Shown: positions 5,568 through 41,794, counted from the first letter of the stretch. The stretch is DNA of 46,658 nt from an uncultured bacterium (GCA_963705505.1 CAVPJU010000009.1:1-46658); one strand, 5' to 3'. The notes: generated by a model not told the origin, from the sequence alone. A program made the numbers and translations.

Positions 5568-5603
5568 CCCCCACCCGAACCCTCCCCCCTCAAGGGGGAG
5601 GGA
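5568..5603. repeat. C-rich REP family (copies/variants ~6349, 12069, 17640-17723, 18276, 19357-19443, 20802, 25660, 30746-30829, 33724, 37458, 38773, 40558, 40709, 41674, 42866)
   Basis: CCCCCACCCnnnCCCTCCCCC-loop-GGGGGAGGGAA hairpins. Confidence 0.85.
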
Positions 5604-5628
5604 ATCTAAATAAAGCAGGGGAAGAGGA

Positions 5629-18311: not shown

Positions 18312-18389
18312 AAAGGACAAAGACGAGATGCTGATTAGATCACCGGATTCGAGTCCGGGATGACGAACAATGTGTGCGAGGAGGCGGTC

Positions 18390-25036: not shown

Positions 25037-25570
25037 ATGACCAAAATATTACGTCCGATACTCAGCCTGATACTGGTTCTGACCGCGCTGCCGTTGGTTT
25101 TATTGTTTGCGCCTGAGACGAGCGCAGGCAACGGAATCTGCCATACGGAATTTACCCTTTCGGCTCCGGGGTCAGGTAGCTTCGTATTCCAATTCGATGG
25201 TCAGGATATCCCCGGGAGTCCTTTTTCGTTTGCCATCGCTGACGGCGGAACCGCCGGTCGAAATACACCCCTGGACACGACAACGGTCATAACGGAGGAG
25301 CCTCAGGACGGATACGTGTTTGCCGGGATCGAATGCGTAACGGGAACGGGAGTCCTCATTAATCAGATATCGGGAGGTTTCACCATAGAATGTCTGAACG
25401 TGGAGGACGATCAGGCATCCTGCGTGATAACGAATATACCGGTAGAGAGACCTGTCCCGACGCTGTCTGAGTGGGGGATGATCGCTGCTGCCGGCGGTTT
25501 GATGCTCGTGGGAGTTTTCTTCGCGGTTAAACGACTGCGAGCAAGTAAGCAGTCGGACGCCATTGGCTGA
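25037..25570 (+). CDS. IPTL-CTERM protein, family A
   Basis: Signal peptide, EEPQDGY, CVITN, VPTLSEWG. Confidence 0.9.
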   Translation: MTKILRPILSLILVLTALPLVLLFAPETSAGNGICHTEFTLSAPGSGSFVFQFDGQDIPGSPFSFAIADGGTAGRNTPLDTTTVITEEPQDGYVFAGIECVTGTGVLINQISGGFTIECLNVEDDQASCVITNIPVERPVPTLSEWGMIAAAGGLMLVGVFFAVKRLRASKQSDAIG

Positions 25571-25701
25571 CGGCAGAGAAGTGAATTGTACACTGAACTG
25601 AAGTGACTGAAGCCAAAAAGAGTAGGATGGCGGTTAATTCTTAAAACATAAATACAAAATCCCCCTTAATCCCCCTTTGCAAAGGGGGAAATTGAAAAGG
25701 A

Positions 25702-25791
25702 GAGTGGGGGATGATCGCGGCTGCTGCGGGATTGGGACTTATCGGAGTGTTCGTCACTCTGAAGCGGAAACGGTTACACGCGAGCGCGTAA
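25702..25791 (+). other. Orphan IPTL-CTERM tail 1
   Basis: EWGMIAAAAGLGLIGVFVTLKRKRLHASA*, no passenger domain, directly after a REP hairpin. Confidence 0.85.
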
Positions 25792-25886
25792 CCGGACACC
25801 ATTGGCTGATTGCTGAGCGGGAAGGGGCTTTTTCGCTTGGGAGAAAAAGTCGTAAATATTATGTCATTTCGACCAACGGGAGAAAT

Positions 25887-26186
25887 CTAAAGAATTTCAT
25901 CATTCATAAATTTCCATTCGGGGTTGAGTTTTTCTATCAGCCTGTTCTTTTTTTCTCTTCTCCATTTCTTGATTTCTTTCTCACGACTAATTGCGTCTAT
26001 GACACTTTCGTACACTTCACAGTAAACGAGATTATAACAATAGTATTTTCCTGCGAAGCTGCTTTGATCGTCTCTATTTTCGTAATGTTCTTGAAGTCTT
26101 CTTGCGAGATTATTAGTGACACCAATGTAGAGTGTTGTTTTATTAGAGTTGGTAGTGATATAAACGTAGTAGTTGTATTTAGCCAT
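25887..26186 (-). CDS. GIY-YIG nuclease family protein (YhbQ/UPF0213-like)
   Basis: YYVYI..LYIGVTNNLARR..EH, AISREKEIKKWRREKK..NPEW; inverted GTCAT REPs at 25863-25888 and 26209-26235. Confidence 0.95.
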   Translation of the reverse strand: MAKYNYYVYITTNSNKTTLYIGVTNNLARRLQEHYENRDDQSSFAGKYYCYNLVYCEVYESVIDAISREKEIKKWRREKKNRLIEKLNPEWKFMNDEIL

Positions 26187-26384
26187 CACAAAAATATACA
26201 ACAAGATTAGAATTCTCACATGCGTTCGAAATGACAGGGTGGGGGGTGTTCGTAATGATATTGAAATGACATATCCTTAAAGACGAGTCCCTGAACAGCC
26301 CCCAAAAAAAGTTTTTGTGAATCTCCGGTTAAGGAGTAAAATTTTTCATTCCAAATCCGGGATTCCTCTTGTAAACTTTTTCTT

Positions 26385-26573
26385 ATGAGAAGCGAATCAA
26401 AAGTTACACTCGAAAAAGCAGCGAGGATTCTCGGCACCGATCTCACCACTCTGCTCGACGAGATTTACGAAGTCGGCATCACGGTACAGCACGACAGGGG
26501 CTCGGGCTTCGATTTCATAAGCGAAGCGGATTTCGAGGACCTGAAGCAGAGCATGAGCGTCGACAGGAATTGA
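26385..26573 (+). CDS. Small excisionase/MerR-like wHTH protein, paralog 1
   Basis: VTLEKAARILGTDL..EVGITV..DFISEADFEDLK; fold call is inference. Confidence 0.75.
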   Translation: MRSESKVTLEKAARILGTDLTTLLDEIYEVGITVQHDRGSGFDFISEADFEDLKQSMSVDRN

Positions 26574-26674
26574 ACCGGGCGGACTACATTTGAGCGCTCG
26601 GGGGAGTCTTACGCGGCGCGGGCAAGGGCGCGTTTGAAATTGGCGCGCGGCACGGACGAGAGAGGTGTGCGCGT

Positions 26675-27340
26675 TCAGTGCTCTTCGCCCTTTCCCTTGT
26701 TCACGGGCTTGCCGGGCTCGCAGAAGAATTGGTCCGAGTGGGTTTCCTTCATCGTCGCGAGGTCGAGCGTCATTTTCTCCGCGTAGAGGACTATCGACCC
26801 TTCCTTCTCCCATTTCTCGGCGTCGGGGCACGGGGCTTCCTCCTTCGCTTTCCTTCCCGCCCTGAGCACGCGGCTATAACGGAGCGTCCCGCCCTCTATC
26901 ACGGGGTCCGCGTACCAGTCGAAATAAACGAGGCTCTTCTTTCCCGCGTCGATAATCAGGAGGCGCTTGTTGTCCTCTCCCGGCCACTCGTCCACGAACA
27001 TGTAGTCGCCGTGCATTCCTCTGAACGTGTGGGAGCCGCCGAACTCGCCCGCATTTATGGTGTAATAGGCTGCCCTCGCCGCGAGGGAGCACGGGTCGCT
27101 CACCGGCGCGCGCGGCTTGAAGACGTATATGTCCTGCCCCTCGAAGTAGGGAGACTTGCTCGTATATACAACATATGCGGGATAAACGTAGGCCGTGCCC
27201 TCTCCGCACTGCTTCACCTCAGCGGGGTCCGCTCCGGGGATCCCGTGCTGCCCGCCGGGTCCGGCGGCGAGAGAAAGCGCCGAGGACGCGAGAGTGATGA
27301 GCAGGGCGGCTGCGAGAGCCGTGAAATTGTGTCCGTGCAT
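26675..27340 (-). CDS. Secreted hypothetical protein
   Basis: Signal peptide FTALAAALLITLASSALSLA; Cys pairs. Confidence 0.75.
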   Translation of the reverse strand: MHGHNFTALAAALLITLASSALSLAAGPGGQHGIPGADPAEVKQCGEGTAYVYPAYVVYTSKSPYFEGQDIYVFKPRAPVSDPCSLAARAAYYTINAGEFGGSHTFRGMHGDYMFVDEWPGEDNKRLLIIDAGKKSLVYFDWYADPVIEGGTLRYSRVLRAGRKAKEEAPCPDAEKWEKEGSIVLYAEKMTLDLATMKETHSDQFFCEPGKPVNKGKGEEH

Positions 27341-27507
27341 GGTAAATAGGATACCGGCGAAGTGCGGCTGGGCAAGCGCTTTATGGGGAGGCGGAGGGAG
27401 AGCGCGGCGAATCCTCCGACCTGAGATAATGCGCATTCGGACGATGATTGAATATGTCCGATTAATTTAGTAAAATATGTGCTGCTTAGCTCTAAAGGAG
27501 GAGTGAA

Positions 27508-28029
27508 TTGAGAAGACTGATCGGACCTGCTGTATGTGTGTGTGCTTTATTGATAATGGTATTAGCGGTATTCCCCCGACAGGCGTCGGCGCAAAAAGGT
27601 TGTTCGATCGCGGTTCAAAAAGATGCATTCCCGCCTGTCGATATGAATTTCGATTTTGCCGTGGATTCTAATGTCGATCCGGCATTTGAATTTTCGATAC
27701 CCGCCGGAACACATAGTAATGTGTTTTTCATTCCGGGCGAGATCGACACAATATCCGAGATAGTGCCTGAAGGATGGGAGCTGGTCGACGTCACATGTGA
27801 TACGTCAGATCCCGGTTTTATTGTGACTGTGGATGAGAAAAAGAACGTGATAGCTAACTGTTTGTCCGATGGCTTTTCCTTATGTACTTTTACCGACAGG
27901 GGGCCGGCGAATGTGCCTGCTCTGTCCGAGTGGGGGATGATCGCGGCGGCGGCGGGATTGGGAATGATCGGCGTGTTCTTCGCGGTGAGACGACTGCGAG
28001 CGAGCAAGCAGTCGGACGCCATTGGCTGA
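27508..28029 (+). CDS. IPTL-CTERM protein, family A
   Basis: TTG start with AGGAGG, EIVPEGW, VPALSEWG. Confidence 0.9.
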   Translation: MRRLIGPAVCVCALLIMVLAVFPRQASAQKGCSIAVQKDAFPPVDMNFDFAVDSNVDPAFEFSIPAGTHSNVFFIPGEIDTISEIVPEGWELVDVTCDTSDPGFIVTVDEKKNVIANCLSDGFSLCTFTDRGPANVPALSEWGMIAAAAGLGMIGVFFAVRRLRASKQSDAIG

Positions 28030-28164
28030 TTATGGTCCAAGGTGACGAAAATGCGGCGCCTCGCCCGAACGGCGTATCCGGGCTCAAATTCCTGTGAAAT
28101 AGGGATTGCTACACGGCGCCGGATATAGTAAAATTTGCTTTTAGCAAAGGAGACGGAGGGTAGT

Positions 28165-28668
28165 ATGAAAAAGGACTTCAATTATCTTATAGGTATCATT
28201 ATATTTGCAGCCGTCGTATCAGGCGGTTTTTTTGTATCCGGGGCGCGTGCTACGACATGCGGGATTACCGATATCAAATCTGCGCCCGGCGCCGGCGACA
28301 TGGAGTTCGTGTTCAATTGTGAGAGGAATACCGGGAACTGTGACTTTACACTCAAGGACGGCCAGGTCGGCGGGGACGATATCGAGCAGGGCGATTTTGT
28401 TGTCATACATGAAGAGCCCCAGGACGGGTGGGTATTCGGAGGCATCGAATGTGTGGGCGATCCGGGTATTGTGGTTACACAGCTGGCGGACGGATGGACG
28501 ACTCAATGTGTGGTGCCGGAGAGCATAACGGTTTGCACTATAACGAATATATTTACAACGAGGTCGGTCCCGACGCTGTCTGAGTGGGGGATGATCGCGG
28601 CCGCTGCGGGATTGGGACTGATCGGGGTGTTCTTCGCGGTAAGGAGGAGAAGGGAAGCGAGGGCTTAG
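28165..28668 (+). CDS. IPTL-CTERM protein, family A
   Basis: GGAGG RBS, EEPQDGW, CTITN, VPTLSEWG..RRRREARA. Confidence 0.9.
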   Translation: MKKDFNYLIGIIIFAAVVSGGFFVSGARATTCGITDIKSAPGAGDMEFVFNCERNTGNCDFTLKDGQVGGDDIEQGDFVVIHEEPQDGWVFGGIECVGDPGIVVTQLADGWTTQCVVPESITVCTITNIFTTRSVPTLSEWGMIAAAAGLGLIGVFFAVRRRREARA

Positions 28669-29009
28669 GTAATAGCTGTCATTTCGAGCGCACGCGAGAA
28701 ATCTGTTTTTTAAAACGACAAAAGAATAAAGATGGATTTCTCACGCTTCGGTTCGAAATGACAAAAGATAAAAGATGAGATCCTGAGTCTTGCTCAGGAT
28801 GACAAAAGAATGAAGCCTCTTCCCTCGACGAGGGGGAAGGGGCTTTTTTTGTTTTTTGGGGGGAAGACGGATCGAAGCGATTACCGTTCCGGGGACTATT
28901 ACATTACTTTCTCAATAAAACGTAGTATAATGGTGATTAATATTTTTTCTTAGGTTTTAATCTCTACAGGATTTAGGTAGTGACAAGATTATCCTATAGG
29001 AGGATGGCC

Positions 29010-29763
29010 ATGCGTAAATCCACTCGCTTTTCCCGTTTTACAACCTTATTCTTTGCCGCGATTTCCTTTATTCTTATTACCGGAGTGCGTGCGAACGCGC
29101 AGGCGACGTTCACGAATGACCCGGCGGCGTTCTTTAACAGACATCCCAATTTTCAGCTCCAGCTTTTCGCCCAGGGGAACGTCGCACCCGGAGGAGTGGT
29201 CACGTGTGTCCCGCCTGTGGACGAAAACAGTAACGACTCCTGCTTTTCGCCCGGAGATATACTCCCGGGAATCCAGTTCACCGATCCCCCCGCGCCGAGT
29301 GCACTGGATTCTGGTAGGCGAAAATTTTATGGGCACTAGCGGAAATCCCGATAATGCGCTAGTAACCGCATCAGGGACCGATACGTTCGATATAATTTTC
29401 ACGGGCGGGAACGTGTTCGCGGCGGGTATAGGGCCCGGCTGCTTTCTCGATGGAGGGGGGTTATGCGAGGCGACCCTTACGATCCGGGTGTTCGGTGCGG
29501 GAGATGTCCTGTTAGGCTCGACCGTGGTCGACGCCTCGAGTCACTTCGACGATTTTCTCGGGATCGAATCGAACGAGTTCATTACCAGAATAAATGTTTC
29601 CGGACCTGCCGATGTCTTGCAGGGGATAGACGGTATAGCTTTTGTAGAGAGGGTGGCATCCAATGTGCCGACGCTCAGCGAGTGGGGGATGATTTCAGCC
29701 GCCGCCGGATTGGGATTGATCGGCGTGTTCTTTGCCTTGCGCAGAAGGATGGCGAAGGCTTAA
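29010..29763 (+). pseudogene. IPTL-CTERM protein, family B, +1 frameshift at ~29306
   Basis: QFTDPPAPSAL|ILVGENF aligns with VFTDDPVGSELFLAG of the 39114 paralog once one G is removed. Confidence 0.85.
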
Positions 29764-29793
29764 TAACGAAAATAATAAATCCAGGAGGATGAT

Positions 29794-30312
29794 ATGCAGA
29801 GGAAATTCAATCTCTTTACAACCCTTGTATTGTTTGTAATCGTCGTGACCGGGGCGTTCTTCATTACGGCCGGGGAGAGCCGCGCCCAGGGCGGCACCTG
29901 CAAAATAGCGCTTACGAAGGTCGCGGAAGGCGGGGAAGGCTTGATTTTTGATTTTCAGGTCGAGGTAAGCGGAGACACCGGTCTTGCTGAATTAATAGGA
30001 GGCGCTACGATAGTCGGTAATTTCGGGCAGGGGGAACCCGTGACCCTGACGGAGCTTCCCAAACCCGGCTGGGTATTAGTGGACAAATCGTGTGAAACGG
30101 GGCCCGGAGTTATCGTAACGGAGGTGGACGGCGGATTCACTTTTCAGTGTCTCGAGCCGCAGGAGGATGTTCAGGGGGAATGCACCTTCGTGAACGAGCA
30201 GTCGAATTCTGTGCCGACGCTCTCCGAATGGGGGATGATTTCAGCAGCGGCGGGCTTGGGATTGATCGGAGTGTTCTTCGCGGTGAGGCGGAGAAGGGAA
30301 GCGAGGGCTTAG
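29794..30312 (+). CDS. IPTL-CTERM protein, family A
   Basis: CKIALTK, TELPKPGW, CTFVN, VPTLSEWG. Confidence 0.9.
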   Translation: MQRKFNLFTTLVLFVIVVTGAFFITAGESRAQGGTCKIALTKVAEGGEGLIFDFQVEVSGDTGLAELIGGATIVGNFGQGEPVTLTELPKPGWVLVDKSCETGPGVIVTEVDGGFTFQCLEPQEDVQGECTFVNEQSNSVPTLSEWGMISAAAGLGLIGVFFAVRRRREARA

Positions 30313-30480
30313 GTAATAGCTGTCATTTCGAGCGCACGCGAGAAATCTGTTTTTTAAAACGACAAAAGAATAAAGATAGATTTCTCACGCTTCGGTTCGA
30401 AATGACAAAAGTTGAATGGAGCCTCTTCCCTCCGAGCGGGGGAAGGGGCTTTTTTGTTTTAGCTTTATTTTCCTGTTCCC

Positions 30481-30675
30481 GGAAAAGACGAATAAACAGA
30501 AAGGCAAATATATTTCTCTTCTTTTCCTTGATGAAAAGAAGCAAAAATCACTCGACAGCACAGAATTTGCTAAAAATATCTTATTAAGGCTAAAATCTTT
30601 CAATTCCGCCCCAGCCCTGAAACATTTTCACGCCTTAACAATCTATTTTCTTAACGCAAATTCTGTGAATGTCGG
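30481..30675. repeat. ~190-bp hairpin/MITE-like repeat; near-identical copy at ~46466-46658, partial copies at ~2650, 11950, 34190, 37190, 42460-42830
   Basis: AAAGGCAAATATATTTCTCTTCTTTTCCTTGATGAAAAGAAGCAAAAATCA followed by a long imperfect inverted repeat CGACAGCACAGAATT...AATTCTGTGAATGTCG. Confidence 0.85.
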
Positions 30676-30920
30676 GGAAAAGAAAAGACGAGATTGCCCC
30701 GCCGCTTTGCTGCTCGCAATGACAAAGATGAGAAGAAAAATCATTTCCCCCCTTTAGCAAAGGGGGGGCGGGGGGATTTAATAAGATGTACACCCCCATC
30801 CTCTCCTTCCCCTTTCAAGGGGGAAGGAATTAAAAGGGAGCAGATGAGTGATGGTGAGATCGTAAATACACACTACGTGCGCGTGTTGCGGATGGGGGCG
30901 TATTGCCTTAATATTTACTC

Positions 30921-31130
30921 GTGACGAATCACGGGGAATTCGTGTGTCCCAACTGCGCGTCGGACGAGGTTATTCCGATAATCTACGGCCTGCCTTCACC
31001 GGAGACGGAGGAGAACGCAAAGAAGGGGGAGTTCATTCTCGGCGGATGCGTCGTTATGGAGGGCTCGCCCAATTTGCACTGCAAGTCGTGCGGGCACGAG
31101 TGGTTCGGCAAGTCGATACGCCGGTGGTAG
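30921..31130 (+). CDS. Small Zn-ribbon conserved hypothetical protein
   Basis: CPNC..IPIIYGLP..LGGC..CKSCGHEW. Confidence 0.8.
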   Translation: MTNHGEFVCPNCASDEVIPIIYGLPSPETEENAKKGEFILGGCVVMEGSPNLHCKSCGHEWFGKSIRRW

Positions 31131-31170
31131 CGGCGGAGGGGTATTAATAATAATTCAGGAGGATGGTGAC

Positions 31171-31668
31171 ATGCGTACAATTTCGATATTCGTATTAGCT
31201 CTGATTGCCGTCGCGGCGCTGGGCATGGCGGCGGGGGCGGCTGAAGGGACGGTCACCGGCAGCGTGATGTATGAGGGGAAGACGGTCACTTTCAAGCACG
31301 TTTACATGATCACGGGGCCCGACGCATTCGACCCGAAGTTTACGGACAGGACGCTCCTGTTCACGGCCGACGACATAGGCGCCAAGCTGATGGCTTGCGA
31401 GTCGGTATTCTGCGCCGAAGGGCTCGTCATCAACGGGATGACGCTCGAGTGGGGACCGAACCCGAGGCTCAACTACTGGGTGGGCGTGAATAACCAGCTC
31501 ATCCAGATCGGAGGGACCGCCATACCGGGGGAGGTGTTCAAGGCGAAGGCGGATACGCCGGACCATCTGGCCGGGATGCTGCTGATCGACGACACGAAGG
31601 TCCAGGGGCCGGCGGCCACGGCTGAGTTCGACGTGACGCTCACCAAGGCGTTCAAAACGCACCATTGA
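31171..31668 (+). CDS. Secreted hypothetical protein
   Basis: AGGAGG RBS, signal peptide. Confidence 0.8.
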   Translation: MRTISIFVLALIAVAALGMAAGAAEGTVTGSVMYEGKTVTFKHVYMITGPDAFDPKFTDRTLLFTADDIGAKLMACESVFCAEGLVINGMTLEWGPNPRLNYWVGVNNQLIQIGGTAIPGEVFKAKADTPDHLAGMLLIDDTKVQGPAATAEFDVTLTKAFKTHH

Positions 31669-31710
31669 TGGGGGGACTTTTCCGGTTAATCGTGTAGAAT
31701 TATTTCCACT

Positions 31711-31896
31711 ATGACAAGAGAAGCCAGAATCACACTTGAAAAAGCCGCACAGATACTGGGAAGCGACCTGGAATCGCTGAATTTACAGCTATACGAGCTC
31801 GGGATCAGCATACACCATGACAAGGAGACCGGGACGGACTACATCTCCGCAGCCGACCTGGAGGATCTGAAGGAGAGAATCGGAGTGTTGGAGTAG
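31711..31896 (+). CDS. Small excisionase/MerR-like wHTH protein, paralog 2
   Basis: ITLEKAAQILGSDL..ELGISI..DYISAADLEDLK. Confidence 0.75.
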   Translation: MTREARITLEKAAQILGSDLESLNLQLYELGISIHHDKETGTDYISAADLEDLKERIGVLE

Positions 31897-31937
31897 TTTG
31901 CTGTAGAAATATTATTGACGAAATCTCAGGATTAGTG

Positions 31938-31976
31938 AAAAGCCTCTTCCTCCGAGCGGGGAAGGGGCTTTTTTTT
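31938..31976 (+). terminator. Repeated intrinsic terminator family (also ~3738, 28813, 30419, 32743, 40795)
   Basis: AAGCCTCTTCC(C)TCCGAGCGGGG(G)AAGGGGCTTTTTT hairpin plus T-tract. Confidence 0.8.
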
Positions 31977-32200
31977 GGCGGGGATAGTGACAATTGGTGG
32001 ATGAATGTACCGCTCTCCTTATCGTCAGGCAGAGACTAGCTGAAGGTTTTCCGGAAAATAACCAAATATTCCGCGTTTACAAGGGCTTATACCAACCATA
32101 TTTACCCTCCATAAATAATGGATGTAATTGGATTTTGCTAAGCTATGCTTTTAATGTGCTCCATCAGAGCATAAATCAATTAACAAGGAGGTATTAAGCA

Positions 32201-32695
32201 ATGAGTATAGGTAGAATTTTGGGGATTTGTTCCCTTCTTGTGGTTGTATCCTTTTTTGTCCTGTCCGGGACGTTGCCCGCGGCTGCTCAAGGGGGCGCTC
32301 TCGACGGGAAAACCTTCGCAGGTAAGTTGGGTGAAAAAGGTAAGAAGGGCGATAAGGATGAATTTATTTTTAAAGAAGGAACGTTTGAATCCAAGGCTTG
32401 TGAGAAGTTCGGTTTCGGAAGCGCCCCTTATACAACGACCGCCGCTGGACCTACTACGACTTTCAAAGCGGAGACTACCAATGATAAGGGGGATAAGATG
32501 AGTTGGGAAGGTACAGTCACAGGTATCTTAATCTCGGGAACCTCAACCCTGAATCAGGAGGGTAAAGCTCCGGTTCCGTATTGGTTCAAGGGCAAGATGA
32601 GTGTGGAGGTGCCTAAGGCAAGTATGCCGGAGACTCCTAAAGTAGATACACCGGAGATGCCTAAAGCGGACACGCCGGGATCCTCTAATTATTGA
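32201..32695 (+). CDS. Secreted hypothetical protein with Pro-rich repeated C-terminus
   Basis: AAGGAGG RBS, signal peptide, PKASMPETPKVDTPEMPKADTP. Confidence 0.8.
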   Translation: MSIGRILGICSLLVVVSFFVLSGTLPAAAQGGALDGKTFAGKLGEKGKKGDKDEFIFKEGTFESKACEKFGFGSAPYTTTAAGPTTTFKAETTNDKGDKMSWEGTVTGILISGTSTLNQEGKAPVPYWFKGKMSVEVPKASMPETPKVDTPEMPKADTPGSSNY

Positions 32696-32961
32696 TACCG
32701 GGCTGAGCTAGAAATACTAAAGGGGATTAATTAAGGATAGCGAAAAGCCTCTTCCTCCGAGCGGGGAAGGGGCTTTTTTTGTTTTGGGGTGGGGCTTGGC
32801 GCTATAATCATCGCGCTTCTTCCGTTCCTGTTTTTGAACTTTTACTTCGGAGATTGGTTGTGTAGCTTTTTTAAGCAAGTCAAAGAAACTGCTTTGTTGG
32901 TGCTTTTAATTCTTTAGAACTTGGTTTTTTCTTCATATGCTAAGTTTAACATTTCAGAGAT

Positions 32962-33558
32962 TTATTTAGACCAATCTTGACGTTGAATATTTAAACAGGC
33001 CGTATCAATTTTAGTTTGACCTTCCTTTGCTTTGATAGTGACTAAACAATTAATTATATATTCATCGCCACGTTCATTTTTAATATAGAGCGCATATGGT
33101 ATAGTTTTAAATCCATATTTTGCGACTAGCGTTTCTTCCTTTGTATCAAAAGTAGCACCATTACCCGATCCCGGCGTTATTAGAGTTGAATATTGATATA
33201 TTTCAGGATTTCCATAGTCTATTCTATAGCCCCAAAGATAAATATTTGTTTTTCCGTTATTAAATATTTGAAATTGATGGCTATCGTAACCTAAATCAAC
33301 CGATGGTGCATAATTAAGCTCAACTAAATCTTTCTGATATTGAGTATTGCTTTGTTGGAGATAGTACGTTCGATATCCTTGTATTGCAGTGAGACATAAG
33401 GCAAGAATAAATATGAGGACATATTTAATCCTATATGCTCTGTTTTTATTCTTGATGAACTCAGTCATTGCACCCAAGACCAGAATGCAGGCTAGAATTA
33501 AGAAAGGTAGAGCAATGTCGATCTTGGACATAAACCAAGTAAAAATTTGTGATAACAT
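32962..33558 (-). CDS. AT-rich hypothetical membrane protein
   Basis: Two N-terminal TM segments; TATACT-7 nt-ATG. Confidence 0.7.
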   Translation of the reverse strand: MLSQIFTWFMSKIDIALPFLILACILVLGAMTEFIKNKNRAYRIKYVLIFILALCLTAIQGYRTYYLQQSNTQYQKDLVELNYAPSVDLGYDSHQFQIFNNGKTNIYLWGYRIDYGNPEIYQYSTLITPGSGNGATFDTKEETLVAKYGFKTIPYALYIKNERGDEYIINCLVTIKAKEGQTKIDTACLNIQRQDWSK

Positions 33559-33933
33559 GGAAATGAGTATAGGGCTTCATAGCATTACTTTTCAAGAGGG
33601 GATATTTACGTAATAGAATGACATTCATCCACCCTTCGACAAGCTTCCGGCTTCGTCAAGACTTCGCCGGACGGACAGGGCGAACGGGTTAAAGAATATT
33701 CGAGTATATAAGATTAATGTGTCCCCCCCATCCTTCACCTTCCCCCTCGTAGGGGGGAAGGAATTAAGTGCCGGGAGGGGAATTATTAGAGAAGCATGTA
33801 TATAAATGTAAATTAATATGGATTAACTCTCGCATATATTGGGATTAGATGATAAAATTGGTATAAGACAAGTTGCTGAGCTTGCATCTGACTAACAAAG
33901 TCCGGCATACGCTATATATATAGGAGGAGAAAT

Positions 33934-34047
33934 ATGATTCCACTGTTTTCTGTACCGACATTGAGCGAATGGGGATTGATCGCGATGGTAGCCGTTATGG
34001 CGATCGTTGGAGCGATTGCGCTGAGAAAGCGCCTGGCTTCAGCATAG
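33934..34047 (+). CDS. Stand-alone IPTL-CTERM peptide (37 aa)
   Basis: AGGAGGAGAAAT-ATG; MIPLFSVPTLSEWGLIAMVAVMAIVGAIALRKRLASA*; below ORF-track cutoff. Confidence 0.8.
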   Translation: MIPLFSVPTLSEWGLIAMVAVMAIVGAIALRKRLASA

Positions 34048-34502
34048 TCTTCCGGGTAGTAAATAACTGCCGAATTCCATCTCAGAAATTATGTAGTCAG
34101 CCTCCGGCCACGGTTCCCGGCATGGGATTTGTGCGGCCGTTCCGTTAGAGAGCCGCGCTTCTTCACAATGACAAATAAAAAGCGAAGATAATTTCTTCTT
34201 TGTCTTGATACAAAGAAGCAAAAATCAAGACCCAATAATCTAACTTATACTATGGCCCTATTATAGGGGTCGGGTCAATGATAGAATCTTGTTAACATTA
34301 TCAATTAATGCAAATATTTATGTCTATTAATTTACGGCAACTGAATACCTATTTATAGTTATTCTTAGTCAGAGCTATAATAATGAGGTTTTTATTTAAA
34401 CAGGGAAAATATAAAAATATAACATGTACAATACGTTGAATGTGATTCGAACACCAAATTCCACGAAGTCTCCGTCATTCTATAACACACGTGTTTGACT
34501 AA

Positions 34503-36080
34503 ATGTCTAGACCGAAATTATATTCACTGGCAATATCAATCGGCTTAATATTCATTATCTTTTTATTGATCGTCATTAAAATGCTTACAACATTCTATAT
34601 CCCAAACGAAGTAGATATCCTTCCGTTTGCCAGACAGTTTTCAGACTCTAACTGGTTACAGAATGACTGGTATTTAAATCTCGAATTTACTTACCGTAAT
34701 CTTTTCAACATAATTTTGGGTCCCCTCGTTTCATGGCTAGGTTTTGACATTGGGAAATTCGTGGGGCGGTTTCTGGTTTATCTATTTTTAGCTATAGCAA
34801 TATATAACTTTTTTAAGACTATCCGCTTAAATTTTGTAATCGGACTTCTCGTCGTATTCTTTTTTCTAGACCATCAGTCAATTGTTGCTGCAGAATGGAT
34901 TGTTCAAGGGGTCGATACTAAAACAGTCGCATATTCATTTGTAATCTTTTCATGGGCGGCATTAATTCGGAAGAGATATTTGCTTGCATTTGCATGTATA
35001 GGTGCTTCAATTTCTTTCCACCCATTAGTAGGAGTTTATGCTATTTATTGTTCCGTCCTTGCAATTCTGGCAAATAAAGAATGGAGAGATGATTGGCATA
35101 TTCTAATTAAACAATCGTGGCCATTTTTCATAACAGGGATTTTCGGTATTTGGACGATCATAGAATCACAACTTCAAAGCAGCGATGTAGATTCAAATCG
35201 AACATGGTGGATTTATACCGTATATCGTCACCCGCACCATCTACTTCCTAGTTCTTGGCATGACGAATATTGGATAATCAAATTGTCTCTCGCCATATTT
35301 TTATTCGGAGCCGTTTTCACTATCGGCAAGTCACGTGCGCTACGTTTCCTCGCTGCTTACGCGTTGGCCAGTGTGTCTTTATTTCTTATTGGATTGGGGA
35401 TATATGCTCTTGGAGAAATAAATCTTCTCAGATTCTATTGGTTCAGGTTCCCTGACGTGATTGTACCGTTTATGAGCTTGATTCTCTTCGGAATAATTTG
35501 CAAGGATTTTTTAAAAGTCCTTGAAAACAAATTCTTTTCTCTCCCTGGAATTCGAACATATTCTGGAAAAGATCTCGAAAAACGGATAAGAAGCATTGCG
35601 ACATTCGTAGCAATACTCGTAATTTTCGCAACAGCTTCCGAATCAACGTTCTATAGGATAAAATCCGAAATAAATGATCGGAGCTCAACTCGGGATATGG
35701 AGTTATGGATAGCTAAATATACTCCAAAAGACTCTGTCTTTCTTATCAACCCGAAGATCGACACTTTCTATGTATTTGCCCAAAGATCTGTATTTGTTAC
35801 GTTCAAACACGTACCACAATCCGCTCCAGATATAATAGAATGGTATGAGCGGATCAAATTATGTAATGGAGGCCGTCCTCCTGTGAAGACAGGTGTTGAC
35901 TCTCTTGATGAAATTCAATCTAACTTTTATAATCTTGATGAAGGATCAATCAGAAAAATAGCTAAATCATATGGGGTCGATTATTACTTGGGATTGCTAA
36001 ATCAAAATCTCACATTCGACCTGGTACATTTCGATGGGGATTATGCCCTCTATAAAATTGACCTTCCCCCCGGAAACTAG
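34503..36080 (+). CDS. Polytopic membrane protein, DUF6798-like (GT-C-like architecture)
   Basis: Many TM segments, PNEVD luminal motif, FHPLVG, YRHPHHLLP, soluble C-terminus WIAKYTPKDSVFL; AT-rich. Confidence 0.7.
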   Translation: MSRPKLYSLAISIGLIFIIFLLIVIKMLTTFYIPNEVDILPFARQFSDSNWLQNDWYLNLEFTYRNLFNIILGPLVSWLGFDIGKFVGRFLVYLFLAIAIYNFFKTIRLNFVIGLLVVFFFLDHQSIVAAEWIVQGVDTKTVAYSFVIFSWAALIRKRYLLAFACIGASISFHPLVGVYAIYCSVLAILANKEWRDDWHILIKQSWPFFITGIFGIWTIIESQLQSSDVDSNRTWWIYTVYRHPHHLLPSSWHDEYWIIKLSLAIFLFGAVFTIGKSRALRFLAAYALASVSLFLIGLGIYALGEINLLRFYWFRFPDVIVPFMSLILFGIICKDFLKVLENKFFSLPGIRTYSGKDLEKRIRSIATFVAILVIFATASESTFYRIKSEINDRSSTRDMELWIAKYTPKDSVFLINPKIDTFYVFAQRSVFVTFKHVPQSAPDIIEWYERIKLCNGGRPPVKTGVDSLDEIQSNFYNLDEGSIRKIAKSYGVDYYLGLLNQNLTFDLVHFDGDYALYKIDLPPGN

Positions 36081-36110
36081 CCCATTGTAAATGAGAGTTC
36101 TCCTCGGTAA

Positions 36111-36225
36111 TGATCCTCACCCAAAAGTTGTACCGGGTAAAGTAGAGATTTCTGACGTTTTTAAATGCTTTTTCAAATACTCCTCGGGCGTCATGTTATC
36201 CAGCGCTAAATGGGGCATGAACTGT
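36111..36225 (-). mobile_element. IS3-family transposase C-terminal remnant with terminal IR
   Basis: Minus strand QFMPHLALDNMTPEEY (cf. RPHSxLxxxTPxE) ending ...GGTACAACTTTTGGGTGAGGATCA. Confidence 0.6.
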
Positions 36226-36409
36226 CGTATTCCATTTCTACCTACACCATCTAAACTTGCTACATTTTTTCGATGTAGATAGTGTAGGAAATGTAGCTAT
36301 ATATTGAATAGAAAAGACCTTATTTGTACTGCTCCCCTTTTGTCAAGCTCGGTTTAAGTTGGATATATGAATAGTATAAAAATACCCTGCTCCGGTTTTG
36401 TGGCTGAAC

Positions 36410-36433
36410 AAAAAAGGGAGCCGAAGCTCCCTT
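36410..36433 (-). terminator. Intrinsic terminator
   Basis: AAGGGAGC-TTCG-GCTCCCTT-TTTT on minus strand, downstream of the 36464 gene. Confidence 0.85.
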
Positions 36434-36463
36434 GATTTAATAATACATATTAGCAGATTGGGA

Positions 36464-37030
36464 TCAAGAAGCTGCTTTTCTTCTTCTGTACACCAGAATG
36501 CTTACTATCCCCAAAATCATTACTAGGGCAATCATCCCCCATTGGTTAAGGGCGGGAATGTTGGTGTAGGCAGGTGGTGGTCCGCATGGACATATTGAAC
36601 GCCTTGATTCAGGCCCACAAGGAAGGCCTAGATCATCCATATCAGTGCGGTGGTCGGCTGGGCATCCATCAAAACTTGAGCAAAGCAATGGGCCATTTAA
36701 CCCTCCATGCACAGAATGAAAACCAAAGGTATCCTCAAGACAACCGTGCGTATAGCTATTAAAGTCCACACTGTTCCCAAGCCCTAGTGCCTGACTAATC
36801 GCCTGGCATTTTTCTTCGGTATTCTGTGCTTCAAACCATACCGTGTCATCCTCGATCGGTTGTGAACCAATTGTTCCGCAAACCTCGTCACAGGCCTGGC
36901 CGCACGCTTGGTCGTTGTAACACCACGTCAGACCGTTTGCCTCCACGCAATTCAACCCCCCCCGTGCCCATAGCCTGGGAGCAAATACCAATAGCATTAT
37001 CACTACTAGAAATAAGTAACTTTTTTTCAT
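36464..37030 (-). CDS. Cys-rich secreted protein with variant IPTL-CTERM
   Basis: Signal peptide, about ten Cys, IPALNQWGMIALVMILGIVSILVYRRRK. Confidence 0.85.
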   Translation of the reverse strand: MKKSYLFLVVIMLLVFAPRLWARGGLNCVEANGLTWCYNDQACGQACDEVCGTIGSQPIEDDTVWFEAQNTEEKCQAISQALGLGNSVDFNSYTHGCLEDTFGFHSVHGGLNGPLLCSSFDGCPADHRTDMDDLGLPCGPESRRSICPCGPPPAYTNIPALNQWGMIALVMILGIVSILVYRRRKAAS

Positions 37031-37588
37031 TTCCCCCTCCTCTCCTCGAAAATTATTTCTAATTATGGAATAATATTGATCTGTATTGATCATAATGGCA
37101 CAATCTTAGCAAATATTCAATAATATAAAAAAATAAGATTATTATCCAACTCCCAATTCTCACTATCCACTTAGTCAAGCAGCTCGATAATCTGTTTTCT
37201 TAACGCCAATTCTGTGATGTCGGGAAAAAAGAAGACTAGATTGCCGCGGTCTTGAAATTGATTCTATGGACTTTCCACCCTTGATCTATCTTTGTGCTAG
37301 ACTAAGCGAGGGCGTCCGGTTCTTGCTAATTTGGCTTCGACGACATCAGCGCGGAGTGATATTCACGTACATCGATTCGACTCATGAGTGACCAATTCTT
37401 CAGCTTGTTCAGAATTGTCGTTCAGAACACGTTGCTTCGCAACGATGGATTTATATCACCCCCATCCTTCACCTTCCCCCTCATAGGGGGGAAGGAATTA
37501 AGTGTCAGGGGGAGGGGAAATGTAATAGGAAATCGCGGAACAAAAAAGTTGTTGATTCCGAGCGAAAAATATTGGTAGAATAGTGGCC

Positions 37589-37768
37589 ATGACCCAAGGT
37601 GTCAGAATTGCCCTGGAGGACGCGGCCAGTATGCTGGGTACCGACCTGGAGAAGCTGCTGATCAAGACGTTCGAGCTCGGGATCAGGATTTATAATGACA
37701 GGACCTCTGCGACGGATTACATTACCGCAGCCGATCTCGAGGGTCTGAAAGCGAGCATGCGGAAATAG
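37589..37768 (+). CDS. Small excisionase/MerR-like wHTH protein, paralog 3
   Basis: IALEDAASMLGTDL..ELGIRI..DYITAADLEGLK. Confidence 0.75.
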   Translation: MTQGVRIALEDAASMLGTDLEKLLIKTFELGIRIYNDRTSATDYITAADLEGLKASMRK

Positions 37769-37987
37769 CGGCAGTCGGGGAAACGCCCGACGATCGCTCG
37801 TCTGTGTCTGTGAGGGAATCCGAAGCCGGCGATGAGGCCGTGAGGGTGGAAGTGTGCGCTTGCGGTGAAATTCGTGCAGTTAACCATTCCATTTTGTTCC
37901 TGAAAATTGTATAATACCGGTTAATCTGTTTTCGTATGATTCAATCTGCAATATCGACCGATAGTTATTTCAACAGGAGGATTTTGG

Positions 37988-38767
37988 ATGACCTTAATTA
38001 ACCGGTATTACAAGATTTATCTATATTTTTGCGCGGTTTGCCTGGTCTGGTCAATTGCGGGGCCGAGGGCTTCGGCGCAGGTTACGTTTACAAATAACGA
38101 AGCGCAGTTCTTCGCCGACAACCCGGGGCTCCTGGTTCAGACTTTCGATTCCGCCATCACCTCCGGCTGTGAGGCGCCCTTCGATTCGACCAGCAGTGCC
38201 GGCTGTTTCCCGCCGGGCGCAATATTCCCGGGAGTGGTGTACGATGTCGCTCCCTCCCACGAGTTCCTCGATATATTCCCCGTCAATTTCAGCGGAACGA
38301 GCGGTAACCCCTCGAAAGCGATCGGACCGGACAACCATACCGATACTTTGGACTTTATTTTCGAAAAAGGCGGCGTGTCCGCCGCGGGTGTCAGACCCGG
38401 ATGCTTCATATTCGCCGACGTGTGCCGTAGAACGGTAACGGTCAGCGTCTATGGGGCGGGAGACACGTTATTAGGCTCTACGCAGGTGGATGTGTCGAGC
38501 CACTTCGACAATTTCGTCGGGATCGAGTCCGACATTCCCATAGCGAAGATCAGCGTCGCGGGGCCGGATTTGGGGCCTCAGAGCGGCTTCCACGCCGTAT
38601 CGGAATTGGTTTTTCCGCAGGGGCAGCTCACAAATGTTCCCACGCTCTCGGAATGGGGGATGATTGCCGCGGCTGGCGGAGTTCGGCTGGGCGGGGTGTT
38701 CTTCGCGGTGAGAATGCGTAACGAAAGCGCAGGCGGTCTGAACGCGGCCGGATTGTTTATAAGTTAA
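37988..38767 (+). CDS. IPTL-CTERM protein, family B (degenerate tail)
   Basis: AQVTFTN.., VPTLSEWGMIAAAGGVRLGGVFFAVRMR. Confidence 0.88.
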   Translation: MTLINRYYKIYLYFCAVCLVWSIAGPRASAQVTFTNNEAQFFADNPGLLVQTFDSAITSGCEAPFDSTSSAGCFPPGAIFPGVVYDVAPSHEFLDIFPVNFSGTSGNPSKAIGPDNHTDTLDFIFEKGGVSAAGVRPGCFIFADVCRRTVTVSVYGAGDTLLGSTQVDVSSHFDNFVGIESDIPIAKISVAGPDLGPQSGFHAVSELVFPQGQLTNVPTLSEWGMIAAAGGVRLGGVFFAVRMRNESAGGLNAAGLFIS

Positions 38768-38819
38768 GGTAAACCCCCACCCGGGCCCTCCCCCTTAGAA
38801 GGGAGAGGGAAATGAAAGA

Positions 38820-38909
38820 GAGTGGGGGATGATCGCGGCGGCTGCGGGGCTTATGATCGTGGGCGTGTTCTTCGCGGTGAGACGGAAACGGTTACAAGCG
38901 AGCGCGTAA
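38820..38909 (+). other. Orphan IPTL-CTERM tail 2
   Basis: EWGMIAAAAGLMIVGVFFAVRRKRLQASA*, directly after a REP hairpin. Confidence 0.85.
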
Positions 38910-39113
38910 CCGGACGCCATTGGCTGACGGCAGAGAAGTGAATTGTACACTGAACTGAAGTGACTGAAGCCGAAGAGCGGCGGGCGGGGTTGAAAATTCG
39001 TGCAATTACCCATTCCATTTCGTTCCTAAAAATTGTATAATAGGGGTTAATTTATTTTCGTTTAATTTAATCTGTAAGTTTTACCGATAGTTAGTTCTTC
39101 AGGAGGATCCCAG

Positions 39114-39869
39114 ATGGCTTTAATTAATCGATATTACACGATTATTCTATTCCTGTGCGCTGTTTCCGTATTCGGCTTCATGACCGGCACGCGGGCTTCT
39201 GCGCAGGTCACTTTTTTATTCAATAAAGGCGAATACATAGCGAACCATCCGCACCAGACGATACAGACGTTCGCCGCAGGGAATGTATCGCCGGGGAGTT
39301 TCACATTTTGTCTTTCGCCTGTAGATCAATTCAGCAACGACAAGTGCTTCGTACCGGGCGACATACTGCCGGGGCTCGTATTCACAGACGACCCCGTTGG
39401 TTCGGAGCTCTTCCTTGCCGGGGTACATCTCAATGGGGCGCCAAATCCGAGGAAAGCTCTTTCTGTCGGGGGGGACCTGACCGACCTGGATATAACGTTC
39501 CCGGACGGGGGAGTCCACTCGGCGGGGATAGTTCTGGGCTGCTTCGTCGAGGGTCCCGGATGCAGCACTACGCTGGCAATCCGCCTCTTCGGTGCGGGGG
39601 ACGCGCCGCTCGGCAATACGCAAGTGCTTGTGTCCGACCGGTTCGACTCCTTCATAGGGTTCGATTCGCCTGTAACCGTGACGAGGATCGAGATCGCGGG
39701 CCCGGACTCGGGTAATACGGTAGAGGCAATTGACGAAGTGAGGTTCGAAGGGGTTTCGAGGGATATTCCCACGCTCAGCGAGTGGGGGATGATTTCCGCC
39801 GCCGCCGGATTAGGGCTGATCGGAGTGTTCTTCGCGGTGAAGAGGCGCAGGCTGCAGGCAGGCGCTTAA
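39114..39869 (+). CDS. IPTL-CTERM protein, family B
   Basis: AQVTF.., CFVPGDILPG, IPTLSEWG. Confidence 0.9.
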   Translation: MALINRYYTIILFLCAVSVFGFMTGTRASAQVTFLFNKGEYIANHPHQTIQTFAAGNVSPGSFTFCLSPVDQFSNDKCFVPGDILPGLVFTDDPVGSELFLAGVHLNGAPNPRKALSVGGDLTDLDITFPDGGVHSAGIVLGCFVEGPGCSTTLAIRLFGAGDAPLGNTQVLVSDRFDSFIGFDSPVTVTRIEIAGPDSGNTVEAIDEVRFEGVSRDIPTLSEWGMISAAAGLGLIGVFFAVKRRRLQAGA

Positions 39870-39962
39870 AAGGGATGGAAGCAAACGGAGTTATAAGACG
39901 TGATTGTAAGGGGATCCAGATTTTGAGAAGAGTTGAAAAATAAATTCTGGAGGAGGTGCTTT

Positions 39963-40478
39963 ATGAGTATATACGGGAAGTATTTAGTCGGAGTTTTAAT
40001 TGCTTTTGTCTTTTCGGGTGTTTTATTATTTCATGCGGATAGTTCCCGCGCGCAGCAGCAGTGTACTCTGAATATAACCAAAGTTACGGAACCGGCGTCG
40101 GGGACTGTATTCTCGTTTGATTATATAGATACGAACGACACTCAGTTCGTTTTCGATCTATCAAACGGCGATACGCAAAAAATACTGATTCCGCCGCCGA
40201 CTACCATTGCCGATATAACGGAGGAGCCGGTGGAAGGGTATGTGATCACGGATATAACGTGCGATACCGAAGAAGGTATAACCGTTACGCAGATCGAGGG
40301 CGGCATCGAAGTGAGCTGCGAAAGCGCAAACGGCGTTACCGCGAATTGTACGATTACCAACACACTCAGAACGAACGTACCGACGCTCAGCGAATGGGGG
40401 ATGATTTCAGCCGCCGCCGGATTAGGCTTGATCGGAGTGTTCTTCGCGGTGAGGCGGAAGAGGGCTAGCGCGGTGTAG
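39963..40478 (+). CDS. IPTL-CTERM protein, family A
   Basis: CTLNITK, TEEPVEGY, CTITN, VPTLSEWG. Confidence 0.9.
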   Translation: MSIYGKYLVGVLIAFVFSGVLLFHADSSRAQQQCTLNITKVTEPASGTVFSFDYIDTNDTQFVFDLSNGDTQKILIPPPTTIADITEEPVEGYVITDITCDTEEGITVTQIEGGIEVSCESANGVTANCTITNTLRTNVPTLSEWGMISAAAGLGLIGVFFAVRRKRASAV

Positions 40479-40609
40479 AATGGATATGCGGAATATATAG
40501 GTTGTAACACAAACTTCTGAAATAAAAGAAGTACTGCTAGTTTATAAATGAAAGGTGACACCCCCACCCTATCCCTCCCCCCTCCAGGGGGAGGGAATAC
40601 AAATAAAAG

Positions 40610-40693
40610 TGGGGGATGATAACGGCGGGGGCGGGATTGGTATTGGTTGGCGTGTTCTTCGCGCTCCGCAGGAGAAGGGCGTTTAATTCTTAA
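40610..40693 (+). other. Orphan IPTL-CTERM tail 3
   Basis: WGMITAGAGLVLVGVFFALRRRRAFNS*, directly after a REP hairpin; in-frame stop just upstream. Confidence 0.8.
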
Positions 40694-41061
40694 AAGAAGG
40701 AAATACAAATCCTCCCTAACCCTCCTTTTTCTAAGGAGGGAATTGAAAGGATAAAGATGAGATTCCCGATTACTCGGGAATGACAAAAGTTATGAAGCCT
40801 CTTCCCTCCGAGCGGGGGAAGGGGCTTTTTTTTTGAGGGGGTGACGGCCTCTTACGGCGGAGCGGCCCGGGACAAAAACCCGGAATATTAATGAGCTGTG
40901 AAGGGCGGAAAATAAAGATTGCATATACTTCTATTTTATAGTAAAATCGAACAATAATTCTTAAAGGATGGTAATAATGGAGGGAGCTTACAAGCCGTAT
41001 AGAAGCAGTTCCCCGATTATTCCGAATATAAAACAATATTAAATCTCAGGGGAGGACAAAT

Positions 41062-41577: not shown

Positions 41578-41794
41578 TGTAGGTAATAAATATAGTGAAT
41601 GGATTCCCGGCTCGTCAGGGCGTCGCCGTGGCAAGCCCGATCGTAGTCGGGAATGACAGGAATATTAATGTACACCCCCACCCGAACCCTCCCCCTTTAC
41701 ATATGGGGAGGGAATTAAAATTGAGGACGAACGGGCTAAAGAAAGTACGAGAAAGATTTCTCGCGCCGCTCGAAATGACATGTTGGGATTGTGT

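Follow-up and report, generated by a model that had tools for sequence, protein, structure and literature searches.

Orphan IPTL-CTERM tails joined to REP hairpins at a common codon in an uncultured bacterium and its relatives

The stretch of DNA analyzed here, referred to as the window, is an entire contig of 46,658 nucleotides (46.7 kb; GCA_963705505.1 CAVPJU010000009.1:1-46658) from an uncultured bacterium. It carries arrays of genes for proteins that end in an IPTL-CTERM sorting domain (TIGR04174/PF18203), recognizable by the signature IPTLSEWG directly ahead of a hydrophobic stretch. Three further copies of this C-terminal tail in the window are orphans, i.e., they are attached to no protein and begin at a common codon behind a C-rich hairpin of the repetitive extragenic palindrome (REP) type. 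At least six genomes from two genera carry the block formed by a tail end, a REP, and a tail start, and the joint is invariably the same, connecting the right arm of the REP with the Glu codon of the sorting motif at its first one or two bases. We consider it about evenly probable (roughly 0.5) that the orphans are untranslated relics residing in such heritable blocks, which would have arisen a few times and been moved by recombination between tails. The genome, a metagenome-type assembly, comprises 2.88 Mb in 10 contigs and is 93.6% complete.

RESULTS

Orphan tails of the window

In each of the three orphans the tail opens with the first codon, Glu or Lys, of (E/K)WGM, 10 to 12 nt of linker after a C-rich hairpin, which in turn comes after the complete tail and stop codon of an intact IPTL gene (Table 1). 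The layout given in an earlier note on this DNA (full IPTL gene, REP hairpin, A-rich nucleotides, tail) matches the sequence at all three sites. Measured from the start of the upstream gene's tail, orphans 1, 2, and 3 begin at distances of 233, 169, and 215 nt, respectively. The hydrophobic stretch, the basic cluster, and the stop codon are retained in all three, so the note's description of these frames as open and hydrophobic holds; PTLS is absent, REP sequence lies upstream, and an in-frame stop codon is located 0 to 8 codons ahead of the tail start. None of the three gave a match to TIGR04174 at an E value of ≤1, whereas five of the six neighbouring full genes reach the cut-off of 20.5 bits and the sixth scores 19.5 bits. 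The best identity of the orphans to working tails of the window is 0.80 to 0.85.

A six-frame motif scan combined with an nhmmer profile over the 2.88 Mb identified 16 IPTL-CTERM tails on the window contig and about 27 genome-wide. The majority of the window tails are carried by secreted proteins of approximately 170 to 260 amino acids, several of which show a weak prealbumin-like (SpaA_4) match. Apart from the three orphans of the window, the scan detected no orphan tail in this genome; the genome-wide search for tails lacking PTLS that the note had proposed thus returned only these three, all of them behind a REP. The sequence AGTGGGGGATGAT, allowing up to two mismatches, occurs 22 times in the window, compared to 1.48 occurrences expected from shuffled sequences, and 15 of the 22 are tail starts.

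On the left side of the REP of orphan 1 lies a tail-end-like fragment that corresponds in sequence to positions 40670-40693 at the end of orphan 3; a block of the related genome G007 (locus L019) contains the same fragment. In the gene preceding orphan 2 (gene 37988; tail at 38652-38767), the tail is degenerate: an Arg interrupts the hydrophobic stretch, and a long extension follows, whose final codons and stop fall inside the left arm of the type B REP. The 3' flank of orphan 2, up to about position 38965, is common with the flank of gene 25037 (81% identity to 25469-25620). The sequence AGCAGGGGAAGAGGATTATTGCGGCGGGGG following the REP at 5580-5645 may, judged by eye from its resemblance, be a decayed fourth tail start.

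Besides gene 37988, one other full gene of the window, at 24423-24926, has a damaged tail (24868-24926), with a frameshift after WGMIAAAVGLG. Elsewhere in the genome, the tail at G000:C10:182097 (minus strand, RPVNVPALSEWGM..AFNT*) shows an in-frame stop nine codons upstream of PALS and no REP joint, and probably represents a frameshifted or truncated gene.

Table 1. Coordinates of the orphan tails, their REP hairpins, and adjoining features in the window
Feature	Position	Strand	Remarks
REP type B behind the tail of gene 4034-5491	5580..5645	+	11-nt linker, then AGCAGGGGAAGAGGATTATTGCGGCGGGGG
Intact IPTL-CTERM gene, 177 aa, before orphan 1	25037..25570	+	Own tail from 25469; TIGR04174, 21.1 bits
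Tail-end-like fragment (..MAVNS*) on REP left side	25623..25648	+	Last codons and stop
REP type C	25660..25701	+	C-run TCCCCC, 25660-25665; hairpin, 25670-25689; A-rich linker, 25690-25701
Orphan tail 1, EWGMIAAAAGLGLIGVFVTLKRKRLHASA*	25702..25791	+	Start GAG TGG GGG ATG; TAA, 25789-25791; nhmmer E value, 3.9e-18
IPTL-type gene, 259 aa, degenerate tail	37988..38767	+	TIGR04174, 19.5 bits, just below cut-off
REP type B	38774..38819	+	C-run CCCCCACCC, 38774-38782; hairpin, 38786-38809; linker, 38810-38819
Orphan tail 2, EWGMIAAAAGLMIVGVFFAVRRKRLQASA*	38820..38909	+	Motif scan and nhmmer
Intact IPTL-CTERM gene, 181 aa, before orphan 3	39933..40478	+	Own tail from 40392; TIGR04174, 24.6 bits
REP type B	40561..40606	+	C-run CCCCCACCC, 40561-40569; hairpin, 40572-40596; linker, 40597-40606; fold z-score, -2.5
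Orphan tail 3, KWGMITAGAGLVLVGVFFALRRRRAFNS*	40607..40693	+	First codon AAG (Lys); Trp from 40610
REP type A and second kind of hairpin	40710..40786	+	C-run, 40710-40717; hairpin, 40720-40740; second hairpin GAGATTCCCG..CGGGAATGACA, 40757-40786
Intrinsic-terminator-like hairpin	40794..40838	+	15-pair stem, then T-run

Recurrence of the joint in related genomes

The DNA of the orphan 2 region matches all nine other genomes of the genus and four genomes from three other genera of the family, and several of these alignments span the REP-tail joint. For a closer comparison, 20 stretches from five relatives belonging to the same genus and a sister genus (G003, G004, G007, G009, and G012) were sampled together with the genome of the window itself. 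In this sample nhmmer detected 116 tails, namely, 100 with PTLS upstream and 16 orphans. The first codons of all 16 orphans encode (E/K)WGM or, in some, the closely similar KRGM or RVGM; a C-rich hairpin and 8 to 15 nt of A-rich linker precede each of them, and all four REP types (A to D) described below are represented. The REP-associated breakpoint that the note had seen in the three window orphans is therefore a recurrent feature across genomes.

The association was also evident when the REPs rather than the tails were taken as the starting point. Thirty-five of 280 REP hairpins lie within 130 nt after a tail. Thirteen of these are followed by a tail detected by nhmmer, 6 more by truncated or internally deleted tail starts recognized by eye, and a further 7 by the 10-nt stub GAGCGGGGGA, which is fused to the 5' untranslated region (UTR) of one subfamily of IPTL genes. 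Consequently, a tail start follows 26 of the 35 REPs behind a tail, compared to 0 of the 245 REPs located elsewhere. A separate pass with regular expressions yielded 39 candidate tail-like right flanks among 358 hairpins; 28 were accepted as true tail starts, and the remaining 11 proved to be a different repeat containing GAACGGG. Four additional orphans are situated behind REPs interrupted by another inserted element. In total, about 25 orphan tails or truncated starts and seven 10-base stubs were counted.

The two edges of the orphans behave differently. The right edge is variable, ranging from 10 nt up to a whole tail with its natural 3' flank; stubs of 10, about 20 to 25, 23, and 33 nt were found, and several orphans have internal deletions. 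The left edge, in contrast, is fixed apart from two orphans truncated at the 5' end, one after a type A REP (L012, position 16183) and one after a REP at L013, position 21.

The REP hairpin family

By the criteria of this analysis, the genome of the window contains 141 hairpins with an upstream C-run, making this an abundant dispersed intergenic repeat. A copy consists of an A-rich left arm, a C-rich run (the "X-box") resembling the 5' arm of the stem, a stem of 7 to 11 bp, and an A-rich right arm of approximately 10 nt. Four types were distinguished by their stems, i.e., type A with CCCTCCTTT, type B with CCCTCCCCC and the X-box CCCCCACCC, type C with TCCCCCTTT, and type D with CCCTCTCCC. The GTAG or CGTC tag was absent from the REP sequences examined, and Rfam returned no family at gathering score in the window, the region 38600-41000 giving just subthreshold chance matches.

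REPs of other bacteria may be linked to REP-associated tyrosine transposases (RAYTs), which carry the domain Y1_Tnp. This domain gave no match in the genome of the window (at its 93.6% completeness) and none in G007, and it was matched in three of the nine other genomes of the genus. Two of these three, G003 and G009, possess RAYT-like genes (L036 on G003:C8 and L035 on G009:C25) that encode Y1 transposases with a conserved core of approximately 155 amino acids. The repeat on either side of these genes is a different one, the GTAG-type GTAGGAGCGGCTTCCAGCCGCGA, copies of which are dispersed through the arrays of the relatives.

Several REPs of G004 and G009 contain a further element of approximately 95 to 170 nt, starting with tattttgGcttag or a similar sequence and sitting between the C-run and the stem (L027 at about 2572, L030 at about 2928, L026 at 1829 and 5728, and L025 at 1018). 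As the element occupies the same spot in each, the REPs are themselves insertion targets. The right arms of type B REPs are often followed by another repeated module with GGACGAACGGG(T/C)(G/T)GGG, for example, at 41686-41740 of the window and at G0C4 5492; in this genome and its relatives this module, the second kind of hairpin repeat, and the GTAG repeat form mosaics reminiscent of bacterial interspersed mosaic elements (BIMEs).

Probable descent of the blocks and turnover of gene bodies

Several observations connect joints at different loci and in different species. An array common to G007 and G009 ends in the same type B REP, the same 23-nt stub, and the same non-IPTL gene, and this joint accordingly predates the split of the two. 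Inspection by eye revealed the linker AATTTATTGTN before GAG in type B joints at several loci of G007 and G009, and AAGnnnAAAGG before AGTGG in type B as well as type D joints of G003, G004, and G012. Furthermore, every REP type is paired with its own type of tail end. Common linkers and a pairing of REP type with tail-end type are what descent of whole blocks predicts.

Two runs of three tails were found, one at L013 (8213/8357/8501, with a period of 144) and one at L011 (8615/8777/8938), in which the outer tails are alike (0.92 and 0.89, respectively) and the middle tail is different. Unequal exchange between tails would yield exactly such runs. When the identity of an orphan to the preceding tail was ranked, the 16 pairs formed two groups, eight standing at ranks 1 to 5 and others toward the end of the ranking (14 of 19, 26 and 28 of 29); the three pairs of the window rank 11 to 14 of 19. 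Since similar direct repeats approximately 150 nt apart should collapse quickly, dissimilar pairs would be the expected survivors. In G012, one pair (L028, 2545/2698) is identical over the 54 nt visible, the remainder reading N, and looks like a very recent duplication.

Two cases fit loss or exchange of passenger domains. The orthologue of gene 37988 in G007 (83% DNA identity) has a normal tail, and a full gene comes directly after it, at the place where the window has a type B REP and orphan 2; no G007 sequence matches orphan 2 better than the tail and flank of this full gene. In the public run X2, a 151-nt contig joins a gene end and tail like those of gene 41062 straight to the last codons of orphan 3 and the type A REP, with 46 nt identical, suggesting that the full gene of a close strain carries a 3' end belonging to an orphan in the window; other contigs of this run differ from the window by 0 to 3 letters per 151, and the joining contig is single, of low depth, and may stem from a paralogous locus. 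Portions of the window that no contig of these runs covers were given no evidential weight.

The part of the window from position 17.8 kb to position 30.4 kb is syntenic with G003, G007, and G009, with gene bodies and tails around orphan 1 too reshuffled to tell deletion from insertion. The G009 orthologue of gene 37988 stands in another context, and the identity of 0.71 to the tail of the G007 orthologue, obtained for both gene 37988's own tail and orphan 2, does not discriminate between the two. A metagenome scan with the protein of gene 37988 produced only two distant loci. On the reverse strand of L017 in G007, an IPTL gene has been cut to approximately 100 codons by an internal deletion (7236-7545), its remains lying between a REP with the 10-nt stub and its own tail; this shrunken gene attests to loss of a gene body with other end points.

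Proposed origin and spread of the blocks

Each orphan is located in the 3' region of an intact gene that belongs to a tandem array of rapidly turning-over genes for small secreted proteins. We propose that a few illegitimate joins would have connected the right end of a REP, positioned just after a stop codon, to the G-run of the Trp-Gly codons, either deleting the body of the next gene or duplicating the gene's own tail. Afterwards the block would have been inherited and copied along with neighbouring genes, and it could enter other genes by homologous exchange via the tails of approximately 85 nt on either side. Unequal exchange between tails would expand the block to tail-REP-tail-REP-tail or collapse it to a single tail, so that pairs of dissimilar tails would persist longest. 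Complete orphans may look intact because of gene conversion from the many working tails or because of their youth, decay presumably proceeding by deletion. As a likely side effect, orphans would provide portable homology for the loss, duplication, or re-tailing of passenger genes.

Several points weigh against this account. The same joint stands behind REP types A, B, C, and D, so inheritance alone would need at least two, perhaps four, founding events at the same nucleotide or a replacement of the REP core in place; as repeated founding at one nucleotide is unlikely by chance, some site preference is indicated that inheritance leaves unexplained. The syntenic arrays did not distinguish deletion, duplication, or import for any of the window orphans. 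The count of truncated starts is biased, as these were looked for to the right of REPs and 5'-truncated orphans would mostly be missed. Moreover, complete orphans show no relaxed constraint: in a comparison of each tail with its nearest full tail, they had 69 synonymous and 35 nonsynonymous codon differences and working tails 424 and 279 (Fisher P value of 0.28). The power of this test is low, since the differences may have accumulated before the tails became orphans; gene conversion may also have renewed them. The dN/dS-type check suggested in the note therefore gave no relaxation, an outcome that would also fit a function.

DISCUSSION

Alternative origins of the joint

The site preference leaves room, of a clearly minor but appreciable size, for a site-preferring or enzyme-driven process, which was the core of the idea in the earlier note. 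In its general form this alternative, which we regard as unlikely, holds that the REP's right end and the GAGTGGGGG within the sorting motif serve as two sites that an enzyme repeatedly cuts and joins, possibly by an IS200/IS605-like or other single-strand mechanism; with the motif downstream the passenger gene would be deleted, and with the motif upstream the tail and REP would be duplicated or moved into another gene, displacing its tail. The occurrence of one joint behind four REP types in two genera agrees with this, as do the invariably complete tail on the left, the lack of disrupted-gene intermediates among the loci seen, and the finding of outcomes with similar as well as dissimilar tails. 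All three window joints can also fold with a 7-bp outer helix between C-run and G-run, which for orphan 1 combines the REP hairpin with an outer helix to GGGGGAT, but the z-scores are modest (-1.9, -0.4, and -2.5). The complementarity of GTGGGGG to a CCCCCAC end of the REP, from which the note had concluded that the sorting motif mimics a REP end, is present at orphans 2 and 3 (38774-38780 and 40561-40567) but not at orphan 1, the C-run of which (TCCCCC) is complementary to GGGGGA and not to GTGGGGG. Nor is it a general feature of the repeat: at least six complementary bases downstream of the X-box were found in 20 of 189 REPs away from tails, versus about 25 of 189 with shuffled partners. In view of this lack of enrichment, the complementarity would seem incidental, the result of a C-rich repeat adjoining G-rich Trp-Gly codons. 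Also at variance with a site-specific enzyme, the candidate modules from tail start to REP vary in content and length (as do the three of the window), and the right ends of the stubs are not fixed. Enzymes of the kinds envisaged were not encountered: integrase, transposase, and reverse transcriptase genes were absent among the 41 window open reading frames (ORFs) scanned. Mobilization by a RAYT or IS200-type enzyme was rejected on the grounds that the genome lacks Y1_Tnp and the RAYT-like genes of relatives carry a different repeat; an integron, because no recombinase family was present among those ORFs and stub right ends vary from 10 to 33 nt; and a diversity-generating retroelement, because RVT_1 gave no match in this genome and the 21 to 24 mismatches per pair are spread over all four bases with no adenine bias. 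Insertion of a REP into intact genes followed by REP-REP deletion was likewise rejected, as inspection by eye of 112 PTLS-EWG motifs and other PTLS-like matches revealed no gene with a REP between PTLS and EWGM. The more specific version, in which the REP right end and the Glu-Trp-Gly codons form a true pair of recombination sites that deletes, duplicates, and exchanges passenger domains before a constant membrane-anchor tail, we hold to be distinctly improbable.

The other alternatives concern the nature of the orphans rather than the making of the joint. As small genes, they would start at the Met of WGM and encode a membrane peptide of approximately 26 residues that might, for instance, regulate or compete with the sorting enzyme. 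Orphan 1 indeed has AGGAG (25698-25702) 8 nt ahead of the ATG at 25711, as stated in the note, and in several relatives AAGGAG, made by the linker and the Glu codon, stands 6 nt before it; in addition, 14 of 14 complete orphans are intact, compared to 94 of 100 full tails, and their constraint resembles that of working tails. However, orphans 2 and 3 have no Shine-Dalgarno motif, no fewer than 11 related copies are cut short, carry internal deletions, or survive as frameless stubs of 10 to 33 nt, and the Glu-Trp-Gly codons, which would remain untranslated, are kept as well as the rest, a pattern that descent fits better than selection on a peptide. The orphans match just generic transmembrane-tail models below their cut-offs, and among the public runs, of which the best held a 0.13 share of the sampled words, no RNA run contained the stretch. 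The micro-proteins suggested in the note are thus disfavored, and a coding function appears very doubtful to us. Between the tail of gene 39933 and orphan 3 there is no intrinsic terminator, one being located only after orphan 3, the type A REP, and the next hairpin; from this arrangement, orphan 3 is probably transcribed as part of the 3' UTR of gene 39933. Even less credence is given to the note's further proposal of silent donor cassettes that repair or vary expressed tails by gene conversion. The tails are mosaics, and recombination among them is evident, but the orphans hold the conserved part of the tail only, with no variable part, the sample already contains 100 working tails that could act as donors, and no orphan is identical to a working tail of the window. 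Finally, misjoining of repeated tails and REPs during assembly might be suspected for a 10-contig metagenome-type assembly of which no public run holds more than that share of words. The same joint is, however, present in six separate assemblies, including a contig of 2.79 Mb (G007:C9) and one of 644 kb (G003:C2), and a contig of public run X1, which may be the sample of origin, reproduces 40600-40788 with 0 mismatches, covering the linker end, orphan 3, the type A REP, and the next hairpin and stopping short of bridging the type B REP. An artefact is hence hardly credible.

Nucleases and mobile genes near the arrays

The note had named a DUF559 protein as the nuclease that would cut REPs. This Vsr-like endonuclease is encoded at 22122-22442 (plus strand), 3.2 kb from orphan 1, by the only copy in the genome. 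DUF559 is present in six of the nine other genomes of the genus, often near arrays; in G003, G009, and G012 its copies adjoin or lie within IPTL arrays, and in G004 and G007 they are found on contigs that bear IPTL genes, a closeness that may be plain synteny. As it also occurs in related genomes with no match to the tail and REP DNA used as query, it has no specific link to the joints, and as a candidate for making them, it was rejected on this ground and that of its single copy. No evidence implicates it in cutting REPs, and the nuclease gene actually beside orphan 1 is of the GIY-YIG family. With regard to the note's broader proposal that REP-directed cleavage or recombination removes passenger domains, the tie of the breakpoint to the REP stands and loss or exchange fits, whereas a cut by a REP-directed nuclease is unsupported.

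The GIY-YIG gene (25887-26216, minus strand, 109 amino acids; Pfam, 1.8e-15) lies in an AT-rich insert (25862-26236) bounded on either side by an 11-bp inverted repeat (TGTCATTTCGA, 25862-25872; TCGAAATGACA, 26226-26236). The small hairpin repeat GAGATTCCCG..CGGGAATGACA, a common one, is similar to these ends and may be a miniature derivative of the insert. Two further GIY-YIG domains were found genome-wide, on C8 and C10, one of which is a clear homologue of the window gene. Upstream of the arrays, the region 14725-20262 contains phage- or mobile-element-like genes with matches to DUF5131 (3e-102), a LexA-type HTH-S24 repressor, GMT-wHTH, and DnaD_N/HTH_36.

Comparison with known systems

Genomic islands integrating in tRNA genes leave displaced gene 3' ends as attR remnants, and in the present blocks, too, a 3' end that is complete and working precedes a leftover copy of the same 3' end, with a sharp boundary common to the copies. 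The blocks differ in lacking an integrase, an island, and a fixed right boundary; what was inserted, if anything, consists of tail and REP only. At the right end of IS608, a member of the IS200/IS605 family, a guide-like run stands 5' of a hairpin and a complementary site follows about 10 nt 3' of it; the order of C-run, hairpin, about 10 nt, and complementary G-run is similar here. Unlike in IS200/IS605, no Y1 transposase is linked to these repeats, and the complementarity is not general to the family.

REPs are also associated with rearrangements. Work by Kofoid and colleagues from 2003 reportedly placed REPs at the junctions of duplications and in F' formation in E. coli. Their occurrence at duplication junctions and in F' formation in this species is also described in the parts of Slack et al. 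(2006, PMC1428787) used here. With the E. coli junctions, as that source presents them in part, the present joints have in common the participation of REPs in illegitimate or short-homology joining, by which adjacent DNA is duplicated or deleted; they are unlike them in that those junctions are REP-to-REP or involve scattered microhomologies, whereas in the present joints the same coding motif invariably supplies one partner and the product is retained in several species. REP/BIME-type palindromes are known to abut gene ends and to supply stop codons, according to the portion of Di Nocera et al. (2013, PMC3733652) drawn on here. The window REPs resemble the palindromes of that portion in being short, imperfect, numerous, and located just after stops, gene 37988 even ending in the left arm of a type B REP. 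They depart from REP/BIME in having no GTAG/CGTC tag and no RAYT that was found flanked by the same repeat, and the same portion of PMC3733652 contains no description of a repeat whose right end is constantly fused to a single codon of a protein motif. In the literature searched on IPTL-CTERM and REP elements, no description of such a joint between a REP and a sorting motif was found. The finding is best regarded as a variant of the known REP-associated rearrangement scars.

Implications for surface-protein arrays

Families of surface proteins with a common C-terminal sorting signal expand and change fast, and how their passengers gain or lose the signal is poorly known. With the tail of approximately 85 nt and the hairpin repeat, these arrays possess interleaved repeats, and each loss of a gene body or duplication of a tail leaves a recognizable, datable scar. 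The scars amount to a concrete record of turnover for such arrays in an uncultured phylum. They are also of practical use, since they flag open frames of orphans, which automated gene prediction may report as tiny membrane proteins. Were the joint actively made, it would constitute a new link between REP elements and protein-coding motifs; and if REP end and sorting motif were a true site pair, a REP with an orphan tail would represent an empty docking site and a REP with a 10-nt stub and gene an occupied one, which together would form a REP-guided cassette system for surface proteins run by some enzyme.

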